From positions 256,160-320,159 of the forward strand of contig SCTI01000002.1 in the NCBI GenBank assembly GCA_004297735.1: DNA of 64,000 nt. The letters are read 5' to 3'. This document shows positions 12,827 through 30,603 of the stretch, piece by piece. The position numbers and the translations under genes were made by a program. Below the pieces are notes generated by a model. The model worked only from the letters and a program-made list of their open reading frames with translations, had not been told where the DNA came from and ran no database searches. Origin of the DNA: Patescibacteria group bacterium (GTDB lineage: Bacteria; Patescibacteriota; Saccharimonadia; UBA4664; SCTI01). Every line of letters starts with the position of its first letter. The stretch's first letter is position 1.

Positions 12827-12916
12827 TGGCGGAGAGAGTGGGATTCGAACCCACGATACGGTTGCCCGCATACACGCTTTCCAAGCGTGCGCCTTCAGCC
12901 ACTCGGCCACCTCTCC
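12827..12916 (-). tRNA. tRNA-Ser (anticodon GGA)
   Basis: The minus-strand sequence is GGAGAGGTGGCCGAGTGG...GCGCACGCTTGGAAAGCGTG...GGGTTCGAATCCCACTCTCTCCGCCA. It has a long variable arm, anticodon loop TTGGAAA and an encoded CCA. Confidence 0.85.
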
Positions 12917-12974
12917 AGACCTGGAAATTATACCTGAGCCTGGTTGATTTTGGTAGTTGCTGTAATATTAACGT

Positions 12975-13688
12975 ATGGCCTTAATCGAATTAAAGAAAAT
13001 TCATAAGCACTACGTTACCGGCGACACCGAGACGGTGGCGCTTGCCGAAATTAATCTCAATATCAACGAGGGTGAGTTTATCTCGATAATTGGCCCCTCT
13101 GGATCCGGCAAATCAACACTAATGCATATACTGGGGCTGCTTGATTCCCCCACCAGCGGCGAATACAAGCTAAACGGTGATCAAATGGTCAATCGCAGCG
13201 ATAAAGAGTTGGCTCGGTTGCGACGCGACTCGATTGGCTTTGTGTTCCAATCATTCAACCTATTAAATAAGTTAACCGTGCTCCAAAACGTCATGCTACC
13301 AATGGCTTACGCTGGGCTCTCAACCCGAAAGCGTAAAGAAAAGGGCCACGAGCTGCTGCGCCGAGTGGGAATCGAAGATAAAGCAGCCAGTCGAATCAAT
13401 CAAATATCGGGCGGTCAGACTCAGAGAGTGGCGGTGGCTCGGGCGCTCGCAAACGATCCCAGCTTGATCCTAGCGGACGAGCCAACCGGCAACCTTGATA
13501 CCAAGTCTAGCGCCAAGGTGATTGAGCTACTAAAGGGGTTGAACGACGAAGGTCACACCATCGTGATTGTGACTCATAACCCCGAGATTGCCGAGATGAC
13601 CGACCGGGTAATTGAGATTAAAGATGGCGCTATTGTAGCCGATCGCAAAGCAGGATCGCTTAAGCGCCAACGAAAGGCGGTTGTATGA
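12975..13688 (+). CDS. ABC transporter ATP-binding protein (MacB/LolD/FtsE-like)
   Basis: Walker A is GPSGSGKST, the signature is LSGGQTQRVAVARAL and Walker B is ILADEPTGNLD. Confidence 0.9.
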   Translation: MALIELKKIHKHYVTGDTETVALAEINLNINEGEFISIIGPSGSGKSTLMHILGLLDSPTSGEYKLNGDQMVNRSDKELARLRRDSIGFVFQSFNLLNKLTVLQNVMLPMAYAGLSTRKRKEKGHELLRRVGIEDKAASRINQISGGQTQRVAVARALANDPSLILADEPTGNLDTKSSAKVIELLKGLNDEGHTIVIVTHNPEIAEMTDRVIEIKDGAIVADRKAGSLKRQRKAVV

Positions 13689-14899
13689 TCTGGGAAAATC
13701 TCAAAATGGCCGGCCGTTCAATTATGAACAACAAGCTGCGCAGCTTCTTAACCATGCTGGGTATTATCATTGGGGTTGGAGCGGTGTCGGCGGTGATTGC
13801 GATCGGCAATGGCGTTAAAGCCTCAATCACCAATCAGGTAGATGAGCTTGGTACCAATCTGATTCAAGTTAACCCCGGGCAGGGCTTTACCGAAGAGGGC
13901 GGTGGCGGGGCGGCCAGCTTTGCTTCGTCGCTGGGTGCCTCAACCCTGACCGAAAAAGACGTAGCCACCATCAGTGGTATCGACGGCGTAGCGGCGGTGG
14001 CTCCAGCCATGCTGGTATCTGGTGCCCCAAGCCTTAATGGCAAAGTTGCGGCCGGATCGATCGTGTTCGCCACTACCGGTGACTACGATGAGGCGGTTAA
14101 AACCGAGATGGAAAATGGCCACTTTTTAGATACTGGCGAGACCAAGCAAGCGGTAATTGGCAGCAAGGTTGCCGAAAGTCTATTTGGCAGCTTAGATGTT
14201 GCTGGCAAAGAGATAACCTTGCGCAACCAGCAGTTCCGAGTGGTTGGCGTAACCAAAAAGCCTGATAGCGAATCCTTGAACTTAGGACCAAGCCTCGATT
14301 CGGTGGTTTATATCCAGTTTGAGGACGGTAAGACCTTTAATAATGGCACCGCCAACATCAATGAGATTGAGGTTAAGGCGGCCGACCCCAACCGGGTTGG
14401 CGAGATTAAGCAGGCGATTAAAGATAAGGTTAAAGTTAACCACGACGGCGAAAGCGACTTCTCGGTCTCTGACGCCAAGGAGCAGCTCAAGGTGTTTGAC
14501 AGCATCCTGGCAATCATGACTAGCTTTGTGGCGGGTATTGCTGGTATTTCTCTACTGGTTGGCGGCATTGGCATTATGAACATTATGCTGGTATCAGTGA
14601 CCGAACGTACCCGTGAGATCGGCTTACGCAAAGCGATTGGCGCCACCAGCGGTATGGTACTAAGCCAATTTTTGATTGAGGCGGTGGTGCTTACCCTGCT
14701 AGGCGGAGTTCTGGGGCTCGGTTTTGCCTGGCTGCTTGGTTTAATTATGGAATTAGCGGCCAACATCAAGCCGGTCTTTACGGTTGAAGCGGTGGTGGTG
14801 GCCTTTAGTATCTCAACCATAGTTGGCATCATTTTTGGTATTGCGCCGGCAATTAAGGCGGCTCGAATGAAGCCGATCGACGCGTTGCGCTATGAATAG
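13685..14899 (+). CDS. ABC transporter permease (FtsX/MacB family)
   Basis: There is an N-terminal TM segment, a large periplasmic domain and the C-terminal FtsX 3-TM bundle (LRKAIGATSGMVLSQFLIEAVVLTLLG). It overlaps the ATPase gene by 4 nt. Confidence 0.85.
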   Translation: MIWENLKMAGRSIMNNKLRSFLTMLGIIIGVGAVSAVIAIGNGVKASITNQVDELGTNLIQVNPGQGFTEEGGGGAASFASSLGASTLTEKDVATISGIDGVAAVAPAMLVSGAPSLNGKVAAGSIVFATTGDYDEAVKTEMENGHFLDTGETKQAVIGSKVAESLFGSLDVAGKEITLRNQQFRVVGVTKKPDSESLNLGPSLDSVVYIQFEDGKTFNNGTANINEIEVKAADPNRVGEIKQAIKDKVKVNHDGESDFSVSDAKEQLKVFDSILAIMTSFVAGIAGISLLVGGIGIMNIMLVSVTERTREIGLRKAIGATSGMVLSQFLIEAVVLTLLGGVLGLGFAWLLGLIMELAANIKPVFTVEAVVVAFSISTIVGIIFGIAPAIKAARMKPIDALRYE

Positions 14900-15278
14900 G
14901 TTACCGATCTGGTTTGAGCGAGTTGAGGGCGGCCTGATTTTGTTTGGTGCCAGCGCGCTCTACTTTACACTCGGCAATAACTGGCTGACTTTCGTGCTAC
15001 TCTTCTTTATTTTTGACCTATCCTTTGCTGGCTACCTGGCCGGCCCGCGAGTGGGAGCGATTATCTACAACCTGGCTCACACCTTAACCTTTCCAATTAT
15101 TTTGATCGCGCTAGGTATTACAGCTCAGACACTACTACCAGCTGCCAGCTTCGGCCTGATTTGGCTGGCTCATATTGGTTTTGACCGAGCTTTAGGCTAC
15201 GGGTTGAAATATCCCGATGGCTTTACTCACACCACCCTTGGTTGGATCGGTAAAGATAAGAGCAAGAACCGGGTTTAA
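14892..15278 (+). CDS. small integral membrane protein (DUF4260-like)
   Basis: Four predicted TM segments (FIFDLSFAGYLAGPRVGAIIYNLAHT...). It overlaps the permease stop. Confidence 0.55.
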   Translation: MNRLPIWFERVEGGLILFGASALYFTLGNNWLTFVLLFFIFDLSFAGYLAGPRVGAIIYNLAHTLTFPIILIALGITAQTLLPAASFGLIWLAHIGFDRALGYGLKYPDGFTHTTLGWIGKDKSKNRV

Positions 15279-16297
15279 CCCAGCTCTTTTTTAAGCTTCT
15301 CGATTAACTCAACCGGCACCGGATCTACCTGGTTAAGCATTGCCAGATAGGTTGCGACGAAGTCGCCTAAGAGCATGCTCCACAACATCTGCTGTAGCTT
15401 GGTTTGACCCTGTGCCGTCACAATAATTGGCGCCGGCATGGTTCCGCTAAGCAAGCGGTTACTGACCTCAAAGCGTTTAGCAACTCGATCGTTATCGAGG
15501 CTGGAGTGAAGCTGAACCACTCGCATTAAGCTGTCTTTCGGGTTGCCCCACCCGATGAACTCATTGTGATTAAACTCCGGCAGTTGATTCCAGAAAGCAA
15601 TATTCTTGGCGTTCTCGTTAAAATCAATCTTCCACTTCATAGCGGGCATAGCAAGAGTCGGGCCACCATACATCACGACTGGATGACCAACCAGTTGCTT
15701 GGCAATCTGCTTGGCAACATTGTCATCCTCTGGAATATTTGGCGCAAAGTGCGAAATCTCATCAAGCAGCCACTTGGCGGCGGCTTCAAGCTCTGCCACC
15801 ACACCTTCAACCAACTTAAGCTGTTCGAGCAGTACAGCAATTGCTTTGGCCTCATACAAAACTGCAAATCGGGGCTGCATGCCGGCTGGGACCTCAATAA
15901 GAGTGCCGGCGTCACTGCTTTCGGCCAGCTTGCCCCCGGCAGTCATTCGCACCATGGTCGCTCCGGTTTGTGTCACCTGCCTTAAGCAACTCAGCGTCTC
16001 TTCGGTGTTACCGGAATAGCTCGATACAATCACCAAGCTATTTTCGCCAACATAGGCGGGCAGATCATAACCGCGCACAATCTCAAACGGAACGGCTAGT
16101 CGGTCGCTCAACCAACTGCGAATAAACTCGGCGGCCAGGGCTGAGCCACCCATGCCAGTTAAAACAACATTATGAATCTGGTTGGCTGCCGGCGCCTCAA
16201 ATTTATACTGATAGCGCAGTTGTTCCGGTTGTCCCGCCACCATGGCAAAGCCATCGGATCGATCAAAACGAGCAATATATTTTGGGTCGTCGAGCAT
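15275..16297 (-). CDS. bifunctional phosphoglucose/phosphomannose isomerase (SIS domain)
   Basis: The SIS pattern VVLTGMGGSALAAEFIRSWL... is present, and a length of about 340 aa is typical of PGI/PMI. Confidence 0.75.
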   Translation of the reverse strand: MLDDPKYIARFDRSDGFAMVAGQPEQLRYQYKFEAPAANQIHNVVLTGMGGSALAAEFIRSWLSDRLAVPFEIVRGYDLPAYVGENSLVIVSSYSGNTEETLSCLRQVTQTGATMVRMTAGGKLAESSDAGTLIEVPAGMQPRFAVLYEAKAIAVLLEQLKLVEGVVAELEAAAKWLLDEISHFAPNIPEDDNVAKQIAKQLVGHPVVMYGGPTLAMPAMKWKIDFNENAKNIAFWNQLPEFNHNEFIGWGNPKDSLMRVVQLHSSLDNDRVAKRFEVSNRLLSGTMPAPIIVTAQGQTKLQQMLWSMLLGDFVATYLAMLNQVDPVPVELIEKLKKELG

Positions 16298-16363
16298 ACA
16301 ATCTCCTTTCCCCTATTGTACAAGATGAGGCTCCGGAAAGAAGTATAAAAGCGCTTAGCCAAC

Positions 16364-16384
16364 AAAAAACCGGCCTGAGGCCGG
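16364..16384 (-). terminator. rho-independent terminator (minus-strand orientation)
   Basis: The plus strand reads AAAAAACCGGCCTGAGGCCGG. On the minus strand this is CCGGCC-TCA-GGCCGG followed by TTTTTT, terminating minus-strand transcription coming from the GC-rich island. Confidence 0.6.
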
Positions 16385-16837
16385 GGTTCAGCGGTTAAGC
16401 TGGAAACAAGATAGAACGTAGGGCGCTACGCACGGGACGGCCAAGGCCGACCGCCCCGTTGCGTAACTGCCGCGAGTATGTAGTTTTTGGCCGAAGCCAT
16501 CTAACCGGGCATTAGCCCTCCTTCATCGAGGAACAGTGGGCGTTCCAGCACTACGAGGTAGTGCTTTTTGCGCCCTGGTAGAAGCTTGGTCTGATGCGGG
16601 GGCGCGAGACCGGTCGGCTCGTCCACTAGGAGTTGCCTCCTTTTTGGCGAGTTAACACAGCGCCTCGCGCCTCTCACCGCGTCAGTTGTCCGCGCGTACT
16701 CGAGGGAGGCAGTCAGACTGCGACTGTCGAGCGGCGGAACGTCCCGGTTGGGGCGCAAGATACTTCGTGTTCGAGTACTGCCCGGGAACGGCTCTCAGCC
16801 TAGGGCTGATCGAGCCGTTCCCGGCGCCGAGAGGTTC

Positions 16838-17068
16838 CTACGTGAGCGGGACGACCTCGGGCGCGCCACGCGAGCCGGTCGAGGTGCGGCCGGCGGTGCC
16901 GCCGCCGTCGCCGGCGACGTAGCCGGCATCGAGGGCGATGTTCGTCGCCGCGCGCTCGTGCTCGAGGGCGGGGCCGACGGAGAGGTCCTGCGAGGTGTTG
17001 CAAAGCCACTTCTCCGAGCCGACGTCGGTGACGGTCGGCGGGGCGTGCGTCGTGACGCGGATACGCAT
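16838..17068 (-). CDS. small ORF inside the high-GC island (76 aa), unknown function
   Basis: An AAAGGA SD lies 4 nt before the ATG, and the ATG overlaps the TGA of the upstream ORF 17068-17292. Third-position GC is about 95%, as expected of a genuine reading frame from a high-GC organism, and quite unlike the host. No family match was found. Confidence 0.35.
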   Translation of the reverse strand: MRIRVTTHAPPTVTDVGSEKWLCNTSQDLSVGPALEHERAATNIALDAGYVAGDGGGTAGRTSTGSRGAPEVVPLT

Positions 17069-17463
17069 CAGTCCTTTCGGGCACTGCGATGGAGTGAATG
17101 GACTATAACGGCTCTTTGATGGAAGGGGTTTGGCATTCTAATGCCGGAGCTGGTGTGCTCCACTTCCACTTTTGAGCGTTTTTTGCAGAGAGACCCGCTC
17201 GGGGCAGAGGTGTTGAGAGAGAACCTCTCGCAACCTACAGCCACCGTATCGGGTGACATTGCGGGTGTCTCGGGCAGTAAATCACCGTTCATGCGAACCG
17301 TAACTTGCTGCCCGAGACATTGTCTACGTTCTATCTTGTCAAAGAAATAGTTCCGAGCTGGTGTTGGTTAAGCTCACAACTATATGGTTATGGATTCTAA
17401 CAAAAACTGTTAATTTTGTCAATAATATTTATGGTTTAAATGTGAAACGATTGAACTTATACC

Positions 17464-17491
17464 AAAAGGAGGCCCTGCTAGGCCTCCTTTT
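17464..17491. terminator. bidirectional rho-independent terminator downstream of groEL
   Basis: The sequence AAAAGGAGGCC-CTGCTA-GGCCTCCTTTT forms a perfect 7-bp GC stem flanked by A and T tracts. Confidence 0.75.
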
Positions 17492-17520
17492 GACTTGAAC
17501 AAAATCTTTTTGGTTTGAGT

Positions 17521-19173
17521 CTAGTACATCCCGCCCATATCAGGTGCTGCCGGTGCGGCCGGCTTGTCTTCTGGAATCTCAACAATGAGGGTTCCCATGG
17601 TCATAGCGGTACCAGCAATCGAGACCGCATTCTGAACCGCCTCACGTGTCACCTTGGCTGGATCAACCACGCCTTCGGCCTTTAGGTCGATTAACTTAGC
17701 TGGATTGTTAACGTCAAAGCCAAGACCAGGCTTGGTATCATCAAGTACCTTGGCCAACTTTTCTTCGGCATTGAGCCCGGCGTTGCTCATCAACTGCTTA
17801 AACGGCTGCTGTAGGGCATTCTTGAGGATCAACCTACCGGCATCGGCCGAACTACCAACTCGGGTGGCTTCAATGTCGATGTCGCGGCTTAGATCAACCA
17901 GGGTCACTCCTCCACCCGGGACAATACCTTCGGCGACGGCCGCCTTGGTGGCAGCAACGGCATCATCAACCCGGTACTTCTTTTCCTCGATCTCGGTCTC
18001 GGTAGCACCACCAACCTTAATGACGGCAACCTTACCGGCCAGAGCCGCCAGGCGCTCTTCCAGCTTTTCTTTATCGAACTCGCTGGTAACATTCTCGAGC
18101 TGGGCCTTGATCTGGTTGATTCGCTCGGTTACCTCACCGGACTTGCCACCGCCTTCGATGATGGTTGAGTCATCCTTGGTGGCAATGATCTTGCGGGCGG
18201 TACCAAGCATATCAATATCGGCATTCTCAAAAGTAATACCCTGCTCGTCACTGATAACGGTAGCACCGGTCAGGATAGCGATATCCTCCATGATCTCTTT
18301 GCGACGATCACCAAAGCTTGGAGCCTTAATGGCAACGGCGTTAAAGACTCCCTTAATGCGGTTAAGGATAAGCGTCGCCAGTGCCTCGCCATCAACGTCT
18401 TCAGCAATGATGACCAACTCTTTCTTGCCGGTCTGAGCCACCTTTTCGAGTAACGGTAAAATGTCCTGGATTGAGCTAATCTTCTTATCGGTCAGCAGAA
18501 TGTATGGCTTGTCGTAAGCCGCCTCCATGCGAGTGGTATCGGTAACCATATAGGGACTGACGTAACCACTGTCGACAGTAAAGCCATCTACGATTTCTTT
18601 TTCCATGCCCAATGCCTGAGACTGCTCAACTGTTACCCTTCCGCTCCCTCCAATCGTAGAAATTACATCCGCAATTAACTCGCCAATTTGAGAATCACCA
18701 GCAGAAATAGTAGCCACCTGGGCTATCTTGGACTTATCGCTAGCAATTTTTTCACTGAGATTGGTAATTCTTCCGGTAATGGTGGTGGCAGCTTCGTCCA
18801 GGCCCTTCTTAAGGTCCATCGGATTATGACCAGCCTCAATCATTCGATTGGCCTCGCTTAAAATGTGGTAGGTCAGCACGGTAGCAGTAGTAGTACCGTC
18901 ACCAACATCATCGCCAGTCTTGCTGGCAGCTTGCTTGACTAGCTCGGCGCCAACGCCACGACCAAGTGTGTCATCGTCCTTTGCCTGCTCAATGTCAACT
19001 GCCTTTGCCACCGTCACCCCATCATGGGTAACCGATGGGCCACCGTAGCTTTTGCCAATAACCACGTTACGACCTTTTGGACCCATAGTGACGCGAACTG
19101 CATTGTAGAGCTCCTCAGCACCTTCTAGTACGCGCTTACGGGCTTCGCCTTCAGCAATAATTCGTTTTGCCAT
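17521..19173 (-). CDS. groL: chaperonin GroEL
   Basis: The N-terminus is MAKRIIAEGEARKRVLEGAEELYNAVRVTMGPKGRNVV, the C-terminus ends ...GGMY, and the product is 550 aa. Confidence 0.97.
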   Translation of the reverse strand: MAKRIIAEGEARKRVLEGAEELYNAVRVTMGPKGRNVVIGKSYGGPSVTHDGVTVAKAVDIEQAKDDDTLGRGVGAELVKQAASKTGDDVGDGTTTATVLTYHILSEANRMIEAGHNPMDLKKGLDEAATTITGRITNLSEKIASDKSKIAQVATISAGDSQIGELIADVISTIGGSGRVTVEQSQALGMEKEIVDGFTVDSGYVSPYMVTDTTRMEAAYDKPYILLTDKKISSIQDILPLLEKVAQTGKKELVIIAEDVDGEALATLILNRIKGVFNAVAIKAPSFGDRRKEIMEDIAILTGATVISDEQGITFENADIDMLGTARKIIATKDDSTIIEGGGKSGEVTERINQIKAQLENVTSEFDKEKLEERLAALAGKVAVIKVGGATETEIEEKKYRVDDAVAATKAAVAEGIVPGGGVTLVDLSRDIDIEATRVGSSADAGRLILKNALQQPFKQLMSNAGLNAEEKLAKVLDDTKPGLGFDVNNPAKLIDLKAEGVVDPAKVTREAVQNAVSIAGTAMTMGTLIVEIPEDKPAAPAAPDMGGMY

Positions 19174-19197
19174 TATACTCTCTACTCCTAAAAATAT

Positions 19198-19470
19198 TTA
19201 GTTTGCAACAATTGCCAGAACATCTTCTTCTTTTAGAAGAATGAGTTCTGATTCATCAAAATTTACACTTCTTTTTGAGCTTGAATGATGATCATCATAA
19301 ATAATGCTGTCATCTACCTTAACATTCTTAACTTCCGGCCCTACTGCTATAACCTTTGCCACAACTGGTTCTTGCTGTGATGATGGTGGGATAAAAATAC
19401 CTGATGCAGTTTTCTCGGGAGCTTTAAGCTGCTCAGCAACTATTCTGTTAGAAAGTGGCTTAATTTTCAT
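19198..19470 (-). CDS. groS: co-chaperonin GroES
   Basis: The N-terminus is MKIKPLSNRIVAEQ...TASGIFIP. The product is 90 aa and lies immediately upstream of groL. Confidence 0.95.
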   Translation of the reverse strand: MKIKPLSNRIVAEQLKAPEKTASGIFIPPSSQQEPVVAKVIAVGPEVKNVKVDDSIIYDDHHSSSKRSVNFDESELILLKEEDVLAIVAN

Positions 19471-29940: not shown

Positions 29941-30603
29941 CTAAAACCGGAGGTAGCGAGTTAGGCTTTCAATCCAATCGGGATCGCGATCGACTCGCGG
30001 CAAATGCTGGCTCAGAATTTGATCGATTGTTTGAATGTCATCATTTTCGCAAATAAGGGTCAGGCGGGGAACAAAGCGCTTGATTGGCTCGAGGTCAACG
30101 CTGTACCAGCCGGTGTCCTGCATCACGCTATAGGAGTGAAAGGAGGAGTAGGCGGTGATGTTGCCATGGATATTGACCCCGCTTGCATCTAGCTGGTAGC
30201 TGAGGGTTCGTGGCTGCTTACGGGAGTAGATCATAACTGCGAGCGCCATAACCACCACCACAGCAATACTCAGCCACTGCTGAAAAAAGCCCAGTACTGC
30301 AGCAATTATGGCTGTGGCAAGCCATAAACCCAAATACCAAAAGGCCGGCTTTTGGTGGTAAATATACTCGGAGGCCTCCCAGGTATAGCTTTGGGGGAGG
30401 TTAGGGTCAACGACCGGAGCGGCTGGAGGAGGAGGGGTGGCTGCTGGTTTATCGCCCTCGGGTTGAGGCTGTGCTTCCGGTTGGGGAGCTGGAGCCGATG
30501 GGGGAGTTGGCGGCTGCGGAACGGGTGGTACAGCTGGAGTCGGTGGGGTCGGGAGGGGTGGCACCGGAGTAGGGTTATTTGGTTGTCCGGTTTGTGGATC
30601 CAC
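29941..30603 (-). CDS. hypothetical membrane protein with Pro-rich N-terminus
   Basis: The N-terminal 70 aa are a PxP/PPxP low-complexity tract. Two TM helices follow, then a C-terminal globular domain. Confidence 0.5.
   Translation of the reverse strand: MDPQTGQPNNPTPVPPLPTPPTPAVPPVPQPPTPPSAPAPQPEAQPQPEGDKPAATPPPPAAPVVDPNLPQSYTWEASEYIYHQKPAFWYLGLWLATAIIAAVLGFFQQWLSIAVVVVMALAVMIYSRKQPRTLSYQLDASGVNIHGNITAYSSFHSYSVMQDTGWYSVDLEPIKRFVPRLTLICENDDIQTIDQILSQHLPRVDRDPDWIESLTRYLRF

Follow-up and report, generated by a model that had tools for sequence, protein, structure and literature searches.

A GC-rich interval between groEL and a PGI/PMI gene in Saccharibacteria, read as a candidate clamped RNA cassette with an rRNA-operon-like layout

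Known leader systems and the layout of the interval

In rrn operons, the elements follow the order boxB, boxA, and boxC, and boxC contributes to a long-range RNase III stem, whose formation is aided by the transcription complex (PMC8632103). The boxA consensus in gamma-proteobacteria is GYTCTTTAANA (PMC5725501). Here, we compare with such leaders an un-annotated gap of ~1.0 kb in a Saccharibacteria genome, flanked by genes for PGI/PMI (15275-16297, minus strand) and groEL (17521-19173, minus strand). Coordinates refer to the window, by which we mean the whole 64 kb stretch of DNA that was analyzed, and loci in related genomes carry L numbers (L039, L040, and so on). The current annotation of the interval goes no further than “hypothetical protein”.

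An earlier reading of the letters (hereafter, the original prediction) had described the interval as an island of 70-80% GC, bounded by terminators and unlike anything else in the window. Both bounding terminators are present (a minus-strand one at 16364-16384 and the groEL hairpin at 17463-17492), and no other part of the window is as GC-rich, given that the richest 200-nt stretch in the 64 kb, at 16846, has 76.5% GC and the runner-up anywhere has 67.5%. However, the figure of 70-80% applies only to ~16800-17050 (~74%, range 73-79%); the whole island (16364-17350) has 61.8% GC, compared with 50% for the window, and most of its 100-nt windows lie at 56-65%.

From the sequence, we infer that the interval holds an autonomous minus-strand transcription unit of ~1.02 kb, running from ~17387 to 16364. 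Its features, in the direction of transcription, are as follows:

17463..17492, minus strand: groEL intrinsic terminator, a 12-bp perfect hairpin (17463-17474/17481-17492) directly after the groEL stop, kept in L039; the upstream boundary, outside the unit
17422-17394, minus strand: sigma-70-type promoter, with TTGACA (17422-17417), a 17-nt spacer with TG, and TAGAAT (17399-17394)
17347..17383, minus strand: leader hairpin P0, with arms AUAGUUGUGAGCU and AGCUCGGAACUAU and an 11-nt loop, UAACCAACACC
17335..17346, minus strand: boxA-like motif UUCUUUGACAAG, its 3′ half within helix P1
17324..17340, minus strand: P1 5′ arm GACAAGAUAGAACGUAG, an inverted repeat with 16406-16421
17266..17319, minus strand: hairpin P2, 54 nt, ~25 bp
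17078..17265, minus strand: variable region 1, poorly alignable and mosaic among relatives, holding a non-conserved 74-aa frame
17072..17077, minus strand: SD-like AAAGGA, 3 nt upstream of the ATG, read from the sequence
16838..17068, minus strand: 76-codon ORF plus TAG, orphan and fast-evolving, GC3 0.95
16782..16824, minus strand: 13-bp hairpin H3, beginning 13 nt past the stop codon (arms 16782-16794/16812-16824)
16422..16781, minus strand: 3′ structured domain; some blocks are conserved (e.g., 16650-16760), the frames inside are not
16405..16421, minus strand: P1 3′ arm CUACGUUCUAUCUUGUU, partner of 17324-17340
16364..16384, minus strand: intrinsic terminator, a 6-bp all-GC stem with a 3-nt loop and U6 (hairpin 16370-16384, T-run 16364-16369)

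Neither the strong predicted minus-strand promoter nor the 16-nt inverted repeat that closes the unit had appeared in the original prediction.

The order of these elements is that of an rRNA-operon leader: promoter, hairpin, U-rich boxA-like motif, long-range helix arm, enclosed RNA, partner arm, and terminator. In 16 units, a hairpin (P0) stands at the boxB position immediately 5′ of the motif; in the window's unit, the sequence that follows the motif lies in a long-range helix (P1). As in rRNA operons, the enclosed RNA is long and structured, and would be mostly untranslated; two relatives (L055 and L056) also enclose tRNA or tRNA-like genes. Unlike rRNA operons, the cargo contains no rRNA, and that of the window's unit is an SD-led ORF, with neither rRNA nor tRNA detected by Rfam or ARAGORN as a stable RNA product; the motif also differs from the gamma-proteobacterial boxA at two positions. 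By analogy, the unit is best read as a putative new clamped RNA cassette, specific to this clade, whose arrangement mirrors that of an rRNA-operon leader with its processing stem.

Other described RNAs resemble the unit in part. With tmRNA and dual-function RNAs it shares a structured RNA, paired ends, and an internal short ORF, but it has no tRNA-like domain (ARAGORN and Rfam negative), its ORF has an SD and ATG of its own, and it resembles no Rfam family. EAR and phage put elements likewise place a conserved promoter-proximal stem-loop RNA ahead of a long transcript, but differ in architecture and have no long-range clamp, and the unit has no Rfam match to them. An Rfam/Infernal search, as suggested in the original prediction, recovered no known RNA family in the island: with Rfam 15 (4227 models), no family reached its gathering threshold there, and the five tRNAs found in the window all lie elsewhere. 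A permissive scan of 16200-17600 returned chance-level matches only (none above 20 bits, where the thresholds are 40-376), nine related loci gave tRNA matches only, and ARAGORN detected no tmRNA or tRNA in 16364-17387.

Promoter, leader, and helices of the minus-strand unit

The promoter matches the sigma-70 consensus at 11/12 positions, with a predicted start near 17387, and the same promoter is found at the same position in 15 related units. P0 folds in every unit and has 94% of cells paired; its changes include compensatory and wobble ones, and GUUGUG, its 5′ strand, is conserved family-wide. The RNA was also searched for sequences that might pair with the conserved P0 loop, ACCAACACC, and none is conserved among the relatives that keep this loop. 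The boxA-like motif starts 0-3 nt past P0 in 16 units, and TYCTTTGAMAAG is perfectly matched once in the window, at this motif. Its core, YUUGACA, does not vary, in contrast to the covarying remainder of P1, and distant units retain only YUUGACA or UUGAAA. The TTTCTTTGACA of the window agrees with boxA at 8/10 specified positions, with two mismatches, when scored against a gamma-proteobacterial consensus that may not be that of this clade; the Firmicutes boxA, UUCUUUGAAAA, was not counted as evidence. The internal TTGACA was also considered as a second promoter and rejected: the motif is not one, because no -10 element follows it at any spacing (read from the sequence). The leader of the window is 90-91% identical to those of L039, L045, and L047, compared with 72-76% for the PGI DNA and 81-86% for the groEL 3′ end of the same relatives.

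The sense strand of the unit has a predicted folding energy of -462.6 kcal/mol, compared with -363 ± 8 in shuffled sequences (z = -12.3); z is -7.4 for the antisense strand. Helix P1 comprises 17 bp, made up of the perfect 16-nt inverted repeat (16406-16421/17324-17339) and one G.U pair. Its 3′ arm is ~900 nt downstream of the 5′ arm and 20 nt ahead of the intrinsic terminator, and since the arms thus lie near both ends of the RNA, the finished RNA is predicted to be closed end to end. The P1 stem is clean in 13/15 units, and positions 6-17 are occupied by several types of pair; L049 and L050 have no convincing P1, and the 3′ arm of L051 unit 1 is degenerate. Among nine distinct sequence types, cognate P1 arms pair with a mean energy of -23.8 kcal/mol, compared with -10.1 ± 5.4 for arms taken from other units, and the most stable partner of each 5′ arm is its own 3′ arm.

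P2 is present in all units in differing sequences, with both-sided changes at 6/7 basal pairs. P0 and P2 together have 91% of cells paired and a covariation score of 0.467, compared with 0.252 ± 0.022 in shuffles (0/500 reach 0.467); behind this and the other covariation statistics stand few independent events, because the ~16 units fall into roughly six sequence groups. The score drops to 0.06-0.15 when the partners are slid. Over the three helices P0, P1, and P2, G.U oppositions outnumber A.C oppositions by 81 to 9 (12 to 2 in P1 alone, scored without folding bias), and the wobble pairs fit the minus strand only.

This asymmetry bears on the idea of a DNA-level element, whose 16-nt repeats would be the ends of a MITE-like transposon or the recombination sites of an invertible segment. 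Such elements do resemble the unit, which has short, perfect inverted repeats 902 nt apart around a ~0.9 kb variable segment; the content between the repeats is mosaic and differs among relatives, and L051 has three units in 5 kb. Yet the excess of G.U over A.C, in P1 and overall, shows selection for pairing on a single RNA strand, and the arms covary pairwise between orthologous loci, with no single family sequence. The unit occurs once in the 64 kb, its cargo is sense-oriented in every readable unit, and no transposase or recombinase lies alongside. Nor is the module found on the 55 viral contigs with a chance match to the motif/P1 17-mer, among which the leader model had no match. We consider a DNA-level element highly improbable.

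Downstream of the ORF, H3 is retained in L039, L045, L047, and L054, with compensatory and wobble changes. A 13-bp hairpin had been predicted here and does exist, with arms at 16782-16794 and 16812-16824 rather than at 16773-16819. The 3′ domain contains a block ~95% identical to L039, with replaced segments on either side. The AAAGGAGG SD and downstream short ORF of the original prediction are not conserved, the SD region having been replaced in L039, and an 85-aa frame of this domain is broken by 1-nt indels.

Related units, their cargo, and the origin of the interval

The frame of leader, clamp, and terminator was found in at least 16 units of related Saccharibacteria. A terminator-like GC hairpin and T-run follow the P1 3′ arm in 11/12 of the units examined first; the exception, L051, has the T-run without a clear GC hairpin. 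In L055-L057, a terminator-like hairpin and T-run after P1 were seen by eye. The unit belongs to an undescribed family that is restricted to a few related Saccharibacteria, and a search of Saccharibacteria transcriptome and ncRNA papers turned up no account of the element. A metagenome scan with the leader motif gave 23 matches, two of them real (L039 and L040) and the others coding-sequence coincidences.

Enclosed within this frame are homologous small GC3-rich ORFs, tRNA or tRNA-like genes, or, in one case, a 429-aa gene. The clamp of L056 encloses a tRNA-Thr(CGU) (60 bits) together with tRNA-like genes, that of L055 encloses one tRNA-like gene, and some units hold tRNAs or just 20-45-aa frames without high GC3. 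The 429-aa gene is preceded by the same leader in L051, where two further units make up a total of three within 5 kb. Its protein is secreted-looking and has no match in Pfam, NCBIfam, or PADLOC, nor by tblastn against plasmids and phages. Further cargo genes in the family are GC3-enriched as well (0.68-0.92). Across the family, the frame promoter-P0-motif-P1-P2...P1′-terminator is conserved and, judging from the sequences, the cargo is exchangeable.

The abrupt local change of composition had raised the possibility of an assembly chimera. The same element, with both junctions end to end, is present in independent assemblies from JGI (L039), ENA (L045), Logan (L046), and NCBI, and likewise in L047, L054, and L053; the samples and pipelines differ. 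A chimera is thus refuted, short of a check of the reads, and we put its likelihood at practically nil.

The original prediction had also proposed horizontal acquisition from a high-GC organism. Saccharibacteria live on Actinobacteria, and a fragment of an actinobacterial host genome would agree with this way of life, with the actinobacterial-looking codon usage of the ORF (NNC/NNG; GC3 0.95, compared with 0.53 for the genome), and with the GC3 of 0.68-0.92 in the other cargo genes. Composition is, indeed, atypical, but donor homologues were not found: a search of 5.8 billion proteins and an exhaustive HMMER pass through 1.84 billion representatives yielded no homologue of the ORF outside a few Saccharibacteria, and when phage and plasmid collections were searched with the island by blastn, a single 55-nt chance match came up. 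Furthermore, the unit is found at this groEL-PGI position in relatives with a PGI just 73-83% identical, so that any transfer would be old, and GC3 has nonetheless not decayed; the flanking promoter, leader, and terminator look native and show high conservation. A recent transfer is largely refuted, and transfer from a high-GC host altogether strikes us as very unlikely.

Certain other candidates were also rejected: a retron or DGR template (the neighborhood has no reverse transcriptase, and the GC-rich segment is not repeated), a CIRCE/HrcA operator (no sequence match), and a RiPP precursor (no modifying enzymes within 3 kb).

The 76-codon ORF and a possible role for the unit

As originally predicted, the ORF at 16838-17068 has a GC3 of ~95%. 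GC by codon position is 52/46/72 of 76 (GC3 0.95, chi-square p = 2.6e-6), compared with a GC3 of 0.525 ± 0.10 and a maximum of 0.74 for in-frame 77-codon windows of the long genes in the window. The periodicity keeps a constant phase from ATG to stop. The AAAGGA SD was likewise found where expected, and an SD lies 3-8 nt ahead of the start in 9/9 GC3-rich small ORFs of the family (weak, AAAGAGAG, in L057). In contrast, the upstream 74-aa ORF of the original prediction (17068-17292) fared poorly, as its start is inside a conserved RNA hairpin, its GC3 is 0.57, and it is lost in relatives.

Homologous ORFs of 48-80 codons are present in L039, L045, L047, L054, L048, L053, L051, and L057, and have N- and C-terminal motifs in common (RGSP..[VF]GF, AHER, and TDTRGAP..EVVQLA). 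GC3 is 0.92-0.96, in ATG-to-stop phase, in eight lineages (p between 1e-5 and 1e-9), and weaker periodicity is seen in L057 (GC3 0.81, p = 0.03). Against L039, the indels in the 76-codon ORF are of 3 and 15 nt; the N-terminal halves of the ORFs are too diverged for nucleotide alignment in such an indel-length test of coding. The family amounts to seven clusters among the 5.8 billion proteins, other matches to the 76-aa product in the exhaustive search being low-complexity stretches of giant repeat proteins only, and Pfam, NCBIfam, and PADLOC returned no family for the product or its homologues. AlphaFold2, run on a 7-sequence family alignment, gave a pLDDT of 48, and the product is predicted to be disordered, hydrophilic, Gly/Ala/Thr-rich, and without a membrane segment. 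The ORF most likely is translated into such a short disordered peptide with kept N- and C-terminal motifs.

Within the family, dN/dS is 1.2-2.9, with stronger conservation at synonymous than at replacement sites; L048 and L053 differ by five replacement and no silent changes. A functional protein would not normally show a dN/dS in this range, and a peptide that matters little would fit the values too. Selection on the RNA (GC and structure at synonymous sites) appears at least equal to selection on the peptide.

One could go further and suppose a large structured RNA that is purely non-coding, with the 76-codon frame untranslated and its periodicity a relic or by-product. At 74% GC, ORFs as long as this one appear readily (an estimate from composition gives a ~35% chance of a stop-free run over 76 codons), several open frames overlap, dN/dS is at or above ~1 with the synonymous sites the more conserved, the product is predicted to be disordered and has no homologues, and some units hold tRNAs or just 20-45-aa frames that lack high GC3. 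What this account leaves unexplained is a GC3 of 0.92-0.96 in an unbroken, SD-led, ATG-to-stop phase that persists in eight lineages despite changes in sequence and length, along with peptide motifs that survive where the DNA has diverged. We judge a purely non-coding RNA to be distinctly unlikely.

Among small ORFs in highly folded mRNAs with paired 5′ and 3′ ends, hok/sok-type mRNAs offer a comparison, and the original prediction had listed a toxin as one option. As a type I toxin-antitoxin-like module, the unit would specify a hok-type mRNA kept inactive by 5′-3′ fold-back until processing, a notion that draws on the long-range helix, the small ORF, and the heavy structure, and on local hairpins that enclose part of the SD and AUG in L045, L047, and L054. 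Partition-function ensembles give no consistent signal, with no clear exposure of the SD and AUG and no clear occlusion either. The peptide is hydrophilic and predicted to be disordered rather than a hydrophobic toxin with a membrane segment, no antisense promoter (and no antisense RNA gene) was predicted inside the unit, and PADLOC, Pfam, and NCBIfam were all negative. The RNA, at ~1 kb, is also three times the length of known examples (~0.4 kb), and in relatives the family frame carries tRNAs or a large gene. A toxin-antitoxin module is, in our estimation, scarcely likely.

Alternatively, the unit may be an ordinary small-protein gene with long structured UTRs, in which P1 is a 5′-3′ clamp that protects against exonucleases and the leader binds some other regulator; this account includes neither Nus-type antitermination nor RNase III processing. 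It accommodates the conserved ORF with its SD, ATG, and coding periodicity, the terminator that follows immediately after P1, and the imperfect match to boxA, but does not explain why tRNA and tRNA-like genes sit within the same frame in L055 and L056, why an invariant motif stands at the foot of the covarying P1, or why the leader exceeds groEL DNA in conservation. We regard it as rather unlikely.

We favor, with slightly better than even confidence, the reading of the island as a clamped-cassette unit that makes a highly structured RNA, with a Nus-type leader and exchangeable cargo. The structured RNA or small-peptide module among the options of the original prediction accords with the unit's own promoter and terminator, the z of -12.3, the covarying helices, and the conserved coding periodicity. 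Judging from the layout, the leader may act like the boxB-boxA-boxC nut-like site of rRNA operons, with a Nus-type complex loading on the boxA-like motif. Such a complex would carry RNA polymerase through ~1 kb of mostly untranslated, Rho-exposed, hairpin-rich RNA and might keep the P1 5′ arm close to the exit channel for as long as it takes the 3′ arm to emerge. Once formed, P1 could either stabilize the RNA or serve as an RNase III-type processing stem.

Non-coding DNA is scarce in the tiny genomes of Patescibacteria; given this, and a leader better conserved than groEL, the 1-kb unit is likely to be important. If the Nus-type site and the processing or clamp helix are real, the machinery of rRNA-style transcription and folding would extend to accessory cargo, a peptide gene among it. 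The ORF is a rare case in which synonymous sites that are 95% G/C surpass replacement sites in conservation, and cleanly exemplifies either RNA-level selection that overrides protein-level selection or diversifying selection on an epibiont peptide. A bolder proposal, which we hold to be doubtful, is that the clade uses an undescribed modular cassette system, in which the fixed frame of promoter, Nus-type leader, end-to-end clamp helix, and terminator would be a platform and the cargo would be swapped by recombination. The cargo would then comprise orphan, diversifying, extreme-GC3 peptides, odd-anticodon tRNA-like genes, and secreted proteins, and selection on the RNA itself would account for the actinobacterial-style codons and the conservation of synonymous sites; taken furthest, the cell would produce a clamped RNA, resistant to nucleases, to be delivered to the high-GC host of these epibionts or used inside it. 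The leader model offers a handle for finding more such cargo, and with it candidate host-interaction factors of the lineage.

A self-contained unit between groEL and PGI/PMI

The window, from a Saccharibacteria/Patescibacteria MAG, has an overall GC content of 49.9%. On its minus strand, groES and groEL (19173-17521) are followed by the island and then by PGI/PMI (16297-15275), whose product combines the Pfam domains bact-PGI_C and SIS. The original prediction described the island as 70-80% GC. Its core does hold the richest 200 nt of the 64 kb (76.5% GC vs 67.5% for the next best), but GC exceeds 70% only at ~16800-17050, where it is 74%, and the whole island (16364-17350) has 61.8%. The second-highest GC value of the window (67.5%), with a phase-specific GC signal, stems from a 220-aa ORF at 29941-30603 (minus strand) whose N-terminal half is long and rich in Pro and Ala and whose middle is membrane-like. 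A local GC rise (65%, phase-specific GC 0.82) is also seen at the window's left end (358-472).

Both bounding terminators named in the original prediction are real. A promoter and an inverted repeat, which were absent from its list, organize the remaining features.

Features of the unit in the window
17422-17394, minus strand: predicted, near-perfect sigma-70 promoter (TTGACA, 17 nt with TG, TAGAAT; 11 of 12 matches)
17383-17347, minus strand: leader hairpin P0, 5′ strand GUUGUG
17346-17335, minus strand: motif YYCUUUGACAA, 0-3 nt after P0
17324-17339 with 16406-16421: perfect 16-nt inverted repeat, pairing the two ends of the region
17319-17266, minus strand: hairpin P2, 52-58 nt across units
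17068-16838, minus strand: 76-codon ORF with a Shine-Dalgarno (SD)-led ATG, within the cargo

Between the distal copy of the repeat and the terminator that follows it (16384-16364) are 20 nt. Given its own predicted promoter, end-pairing repeat and terminator, the interval is a self-contained minus-strand unit of ~1.02 kb. The sense-strand RNA has a folding energy of -462.6 kcal/mol, whereas shuffled sequences give -363 ± 8 (z = -12.3); for the complementary strand, z is -7.4.

In independent assemblies (JGI, ENA, Logan, and NCBI), the alignment with the window runs through the entire intergenic region and both junctions, which excludes the assembly chimera that had been considered. Relatives were collected by PGI-protein synteny, by the leader motif in metagenomes, by the small-ORF family, and by searching the collected loci with a leader covariance model, and these four routes together gave at least 16 units across related Saccharibacteria. 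In most of these relatives (numbered L loci) the unit lies between groEL and PGI; L051 has three units inside 5 kb, including one that lies downstream of PGI. No unit was found in the loci retrieved from more distant Saccharibacteria (PGI ≤58% identity), and in L002 the groEL-PGI gap is only ~70 bp. The neighborhood at 12827-19470 is conserved in the syntenic loci L045, L047, L048, L053, and L055-L057, in the order DDAH/ADI-like gene, groES, groEL, unit, PGI/PMI, DUF4260, MacB-type ABC transporter (FtsX/MacB_PCD plus ATPase), and tRNA-Ser(GGA). That a MacB-type exporter lies beside a gene for a small peptide may have meaning or may be coincidence; in L050, such transporter genes also adjoin PGI, and the unit there lacks a GC3-rich ORF (GC3, third-codon-position GC).

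P0, P1, and P2 covary as RNA-strand helices

Most units share, in order, a -35/-10 promoter, P0, the motif, the 5′ arm of the long-range clamp helix P1 (which begins within the motif), P2, variable cargo, the P1 3′ arm, and an intrinsic terminator. L050 lacks a clear P0, and the terminator is not clear-cut in L051. The leader is conserved above the neighboring genes: from the -35 through the end of P2, the window is 90-91% identical to L039, L045, and L047, compared with 72-76% for PGI DNA and 81-86% for the groEL 3′ end.

In 13 of 15 units, P1 forms a clean stem of 12-19 bp in which positions 6-17 vary among AU, UA, GC, and CG pairs; L049 and L050 have no convincing helix. When all 5′ arms were paired against all 3′ arms, the 5′ arm of each of the nine distinct sequence types paired most stably with the 3′ arm of its own unit (mean -23.8 kcal/mol for own arms vs -10.1 ± 5.4 for those of other units). 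For the leader, a 14-sequence alignment was used, in which only the basal pairs of P2 were scored because the MAFFT alignment of P2 is imperfect. Across P0 and basal P2, 91% of cells are paired and 9 of 16 pairs have changes on both sides. The covariation score is 0.467, a value reached by none of 500 shuffles (0.252 ± 0.022), and it falls to 0.06-0.15 when partners are slid. The covariation evidence as a whole comes from ~16 units in ~6 sequence groups.

A MITE or invertible segment would also place complementary arms at the two ends. However, the helices contain 81 G.U oppositions vs 9 A.C (12 vs 2 for P1 alone, scored without gaps), so pairing has been selected on the sense RNA strand rather than on duplex DNA, which speaks against such an element. 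We consider it very likely that the interval is a conserved structured-RNA transcription unit.

The window group, L048/L053, and L001/L040 all keep the 11-nt loop of P0, ACCAACACC. CAACACC occurs one further time in the window, in variable region 1 (17205-17215). The loop's complement, GGUGUUGG, is not conserved among units having that loop, so any loop partner would act in trans.

Exchangeable cargo and an orphan reading frame

The 76-codon ORF has G or C at 72 of 76 third positions (p = 2.6e-6); the phase is kept throughout the frame, and beyond it the signal falls off. By comparison, 32 long genes of the window have a mean GC3 of 0.525 (groEL, 0.54) and no in-frame 77-codon stretch in them exceeds 0.74. 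SD-led homologs of 48-80 codons are found at the corresponding position in L039, L045, L047, L054, L048, L053, L051, and L057, with GC3 of 0.92-0.96 (0.81 in L057). They share an N-terminal R-G-S-P...[VF]-G-F, a central AHER, and a C-terminal T-D-T-R-G-A-P..E-V-V-[QP]-L-[AT], separated by hypervariable middles of differing length. These comparisons are good evidence that the family represents a real, though odd, reading frame, and the 76-codon ORF is probably translated. The 74-aa frame overlapping its ATG and the frames after AAAGGAGG, both proposed originally, are not conserved in relatives.

The family is an orphan. It forms 7 clusters among 5.8 billion proteins, an exhaustive HMMER search of 1.84 billion representatives returned only low-complexity matches, and Pfam, NCBIfam, and PADLOC gave none; horizontal acquisition, as originally suggested, is thus not detectable. 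A single database record lists the 76-aa product, naming it a hypothetical protein from a "Patescibacteria group bacterium". AlphaFold2 predicts one tentative helix (pLDDT 48, pTM 0.11).

Values of dN/dS are 1.2-2.9 in all comparisons, and the L048 and L053 ORFs differ by five replacement and no silent changes; the G/C third positions are therefore better conserved than the encoded residues. The extreme, conserved GC3 is best explained by RNA-level selection (structure or stability) at synonymous sites, with the peptide drifting or diversifying. An ancient high-GC origin is possible, as is GC-biased conversion at a recombining locus. In an alignment of five units, L039 and L054 have in common a distinct variable region 1 and an insertion following P2 that is absent from the window, L045, and L047. 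The window ORF groups with L039, and the C-terminus of the L054 ORF with L045 and L047; these conflicting groupings indicate recombination inside the unit.

Other units carry different cargo. L056 (7560-7825) encloses a genuine tRNA-Thr(CGU) (60 bits), a tRNA-like "tRNA-Cys(ACA)" whose anticodon loop is aberrant (43 bits), and a second tRNA-like gene of 22.6 bits whose ARAGORN call has a 2-nt anticodon; L055 (7760-7830) encloses a tRNA-like "tRNA-Val(AAC)" (45 bits). A34 anticodons such as these are unusual in bacteria. A second complete unit, L051:2010-2960, has a perfect 17-bp P1 (GACACAUCAGAACAUAG / CUAUGUUCUGAUGUGUC) and two small ORFs with an ATGA overlap, the second of which starts MTTRHRGTEKVPFGM, similar to the family N-terminal motif. 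All three L051 units have the motif AGCAATTATT after the 3′ arm. L051:1-2000 holds a tandem pair of paralogous genes, each coding for a secreted-looking orphan protein of ~430-440 aa, with identical 60-nt 3′ ends (230-290 = 1845-1905) and GC3 of 0.68-0.78; they match nothing in Pfam, NCBIfam, PADLOC, or phage and plasmid collections. The second (429 aa) has a P0-motif-P2 leader upstream and a degenerate 3′ arm. Overall, GC3 of the L051 cargo genes is 0.68-0.92, compared with 0.50-0.53 for neighboring housekeeping genes.

Likeness to rRNA operon leaders

The closest working parallel is the rrn leader with its processing stem. The nut-like site of rRNA operons is ordered boxB-boxA-boxC, boxC being part of the RNase III stem, and the Nus/SuhB/S4-modified polymerase holds the leader at the RNA exit for delivery to its distant complement (PMC8632103). 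The unit likewise has a hairpin, a U-rich linear motif, and then the 5′ strand of a long-range helix that closes beyond the enclosed RNA. Its motif, TTTCTTTGACA, a candidate boxA, matches 8 of the 10 specified positions of GYTCTTTAANA, the published gamma-proteobacterial boxA consensus (PMC5725501). NusB-NusE recognize about 8 nt of boxA (PMC3177189). The motif core is invariant although its 3′ half lies in P1, whose other positions covary freely, which points to sequence-specific recognition besides pairing. The tRNA genes within the clamp of two relatives imply processing, for these RNAs at the least.

By analogy, we tentatively favor a leader for Nus-type antitermination and folding, joined to a stem that acts as clamp or processing site, and hold this Nus/RNase III mechanism with low confidence. 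The leader would let polymerase cross ~1 kb of hairpin-rich RNA that is mostly untranslated; the product would be a closed nuclease-resistant, or RNase III-trimmed, RNA from which the small ORF may be translated.

The unit is not itself an rrn leader, given its cargo; it resembles hok-type fold-back mRNAs in 5′-3′ pairing only. It is not tmRNA and belongs to no Rfam family, a search of the island having matched none. We found no description of such a unit in the searchable literature, and what we rate as new is an rrn-style leader and stem architecture on exchangeable accessory cargo.
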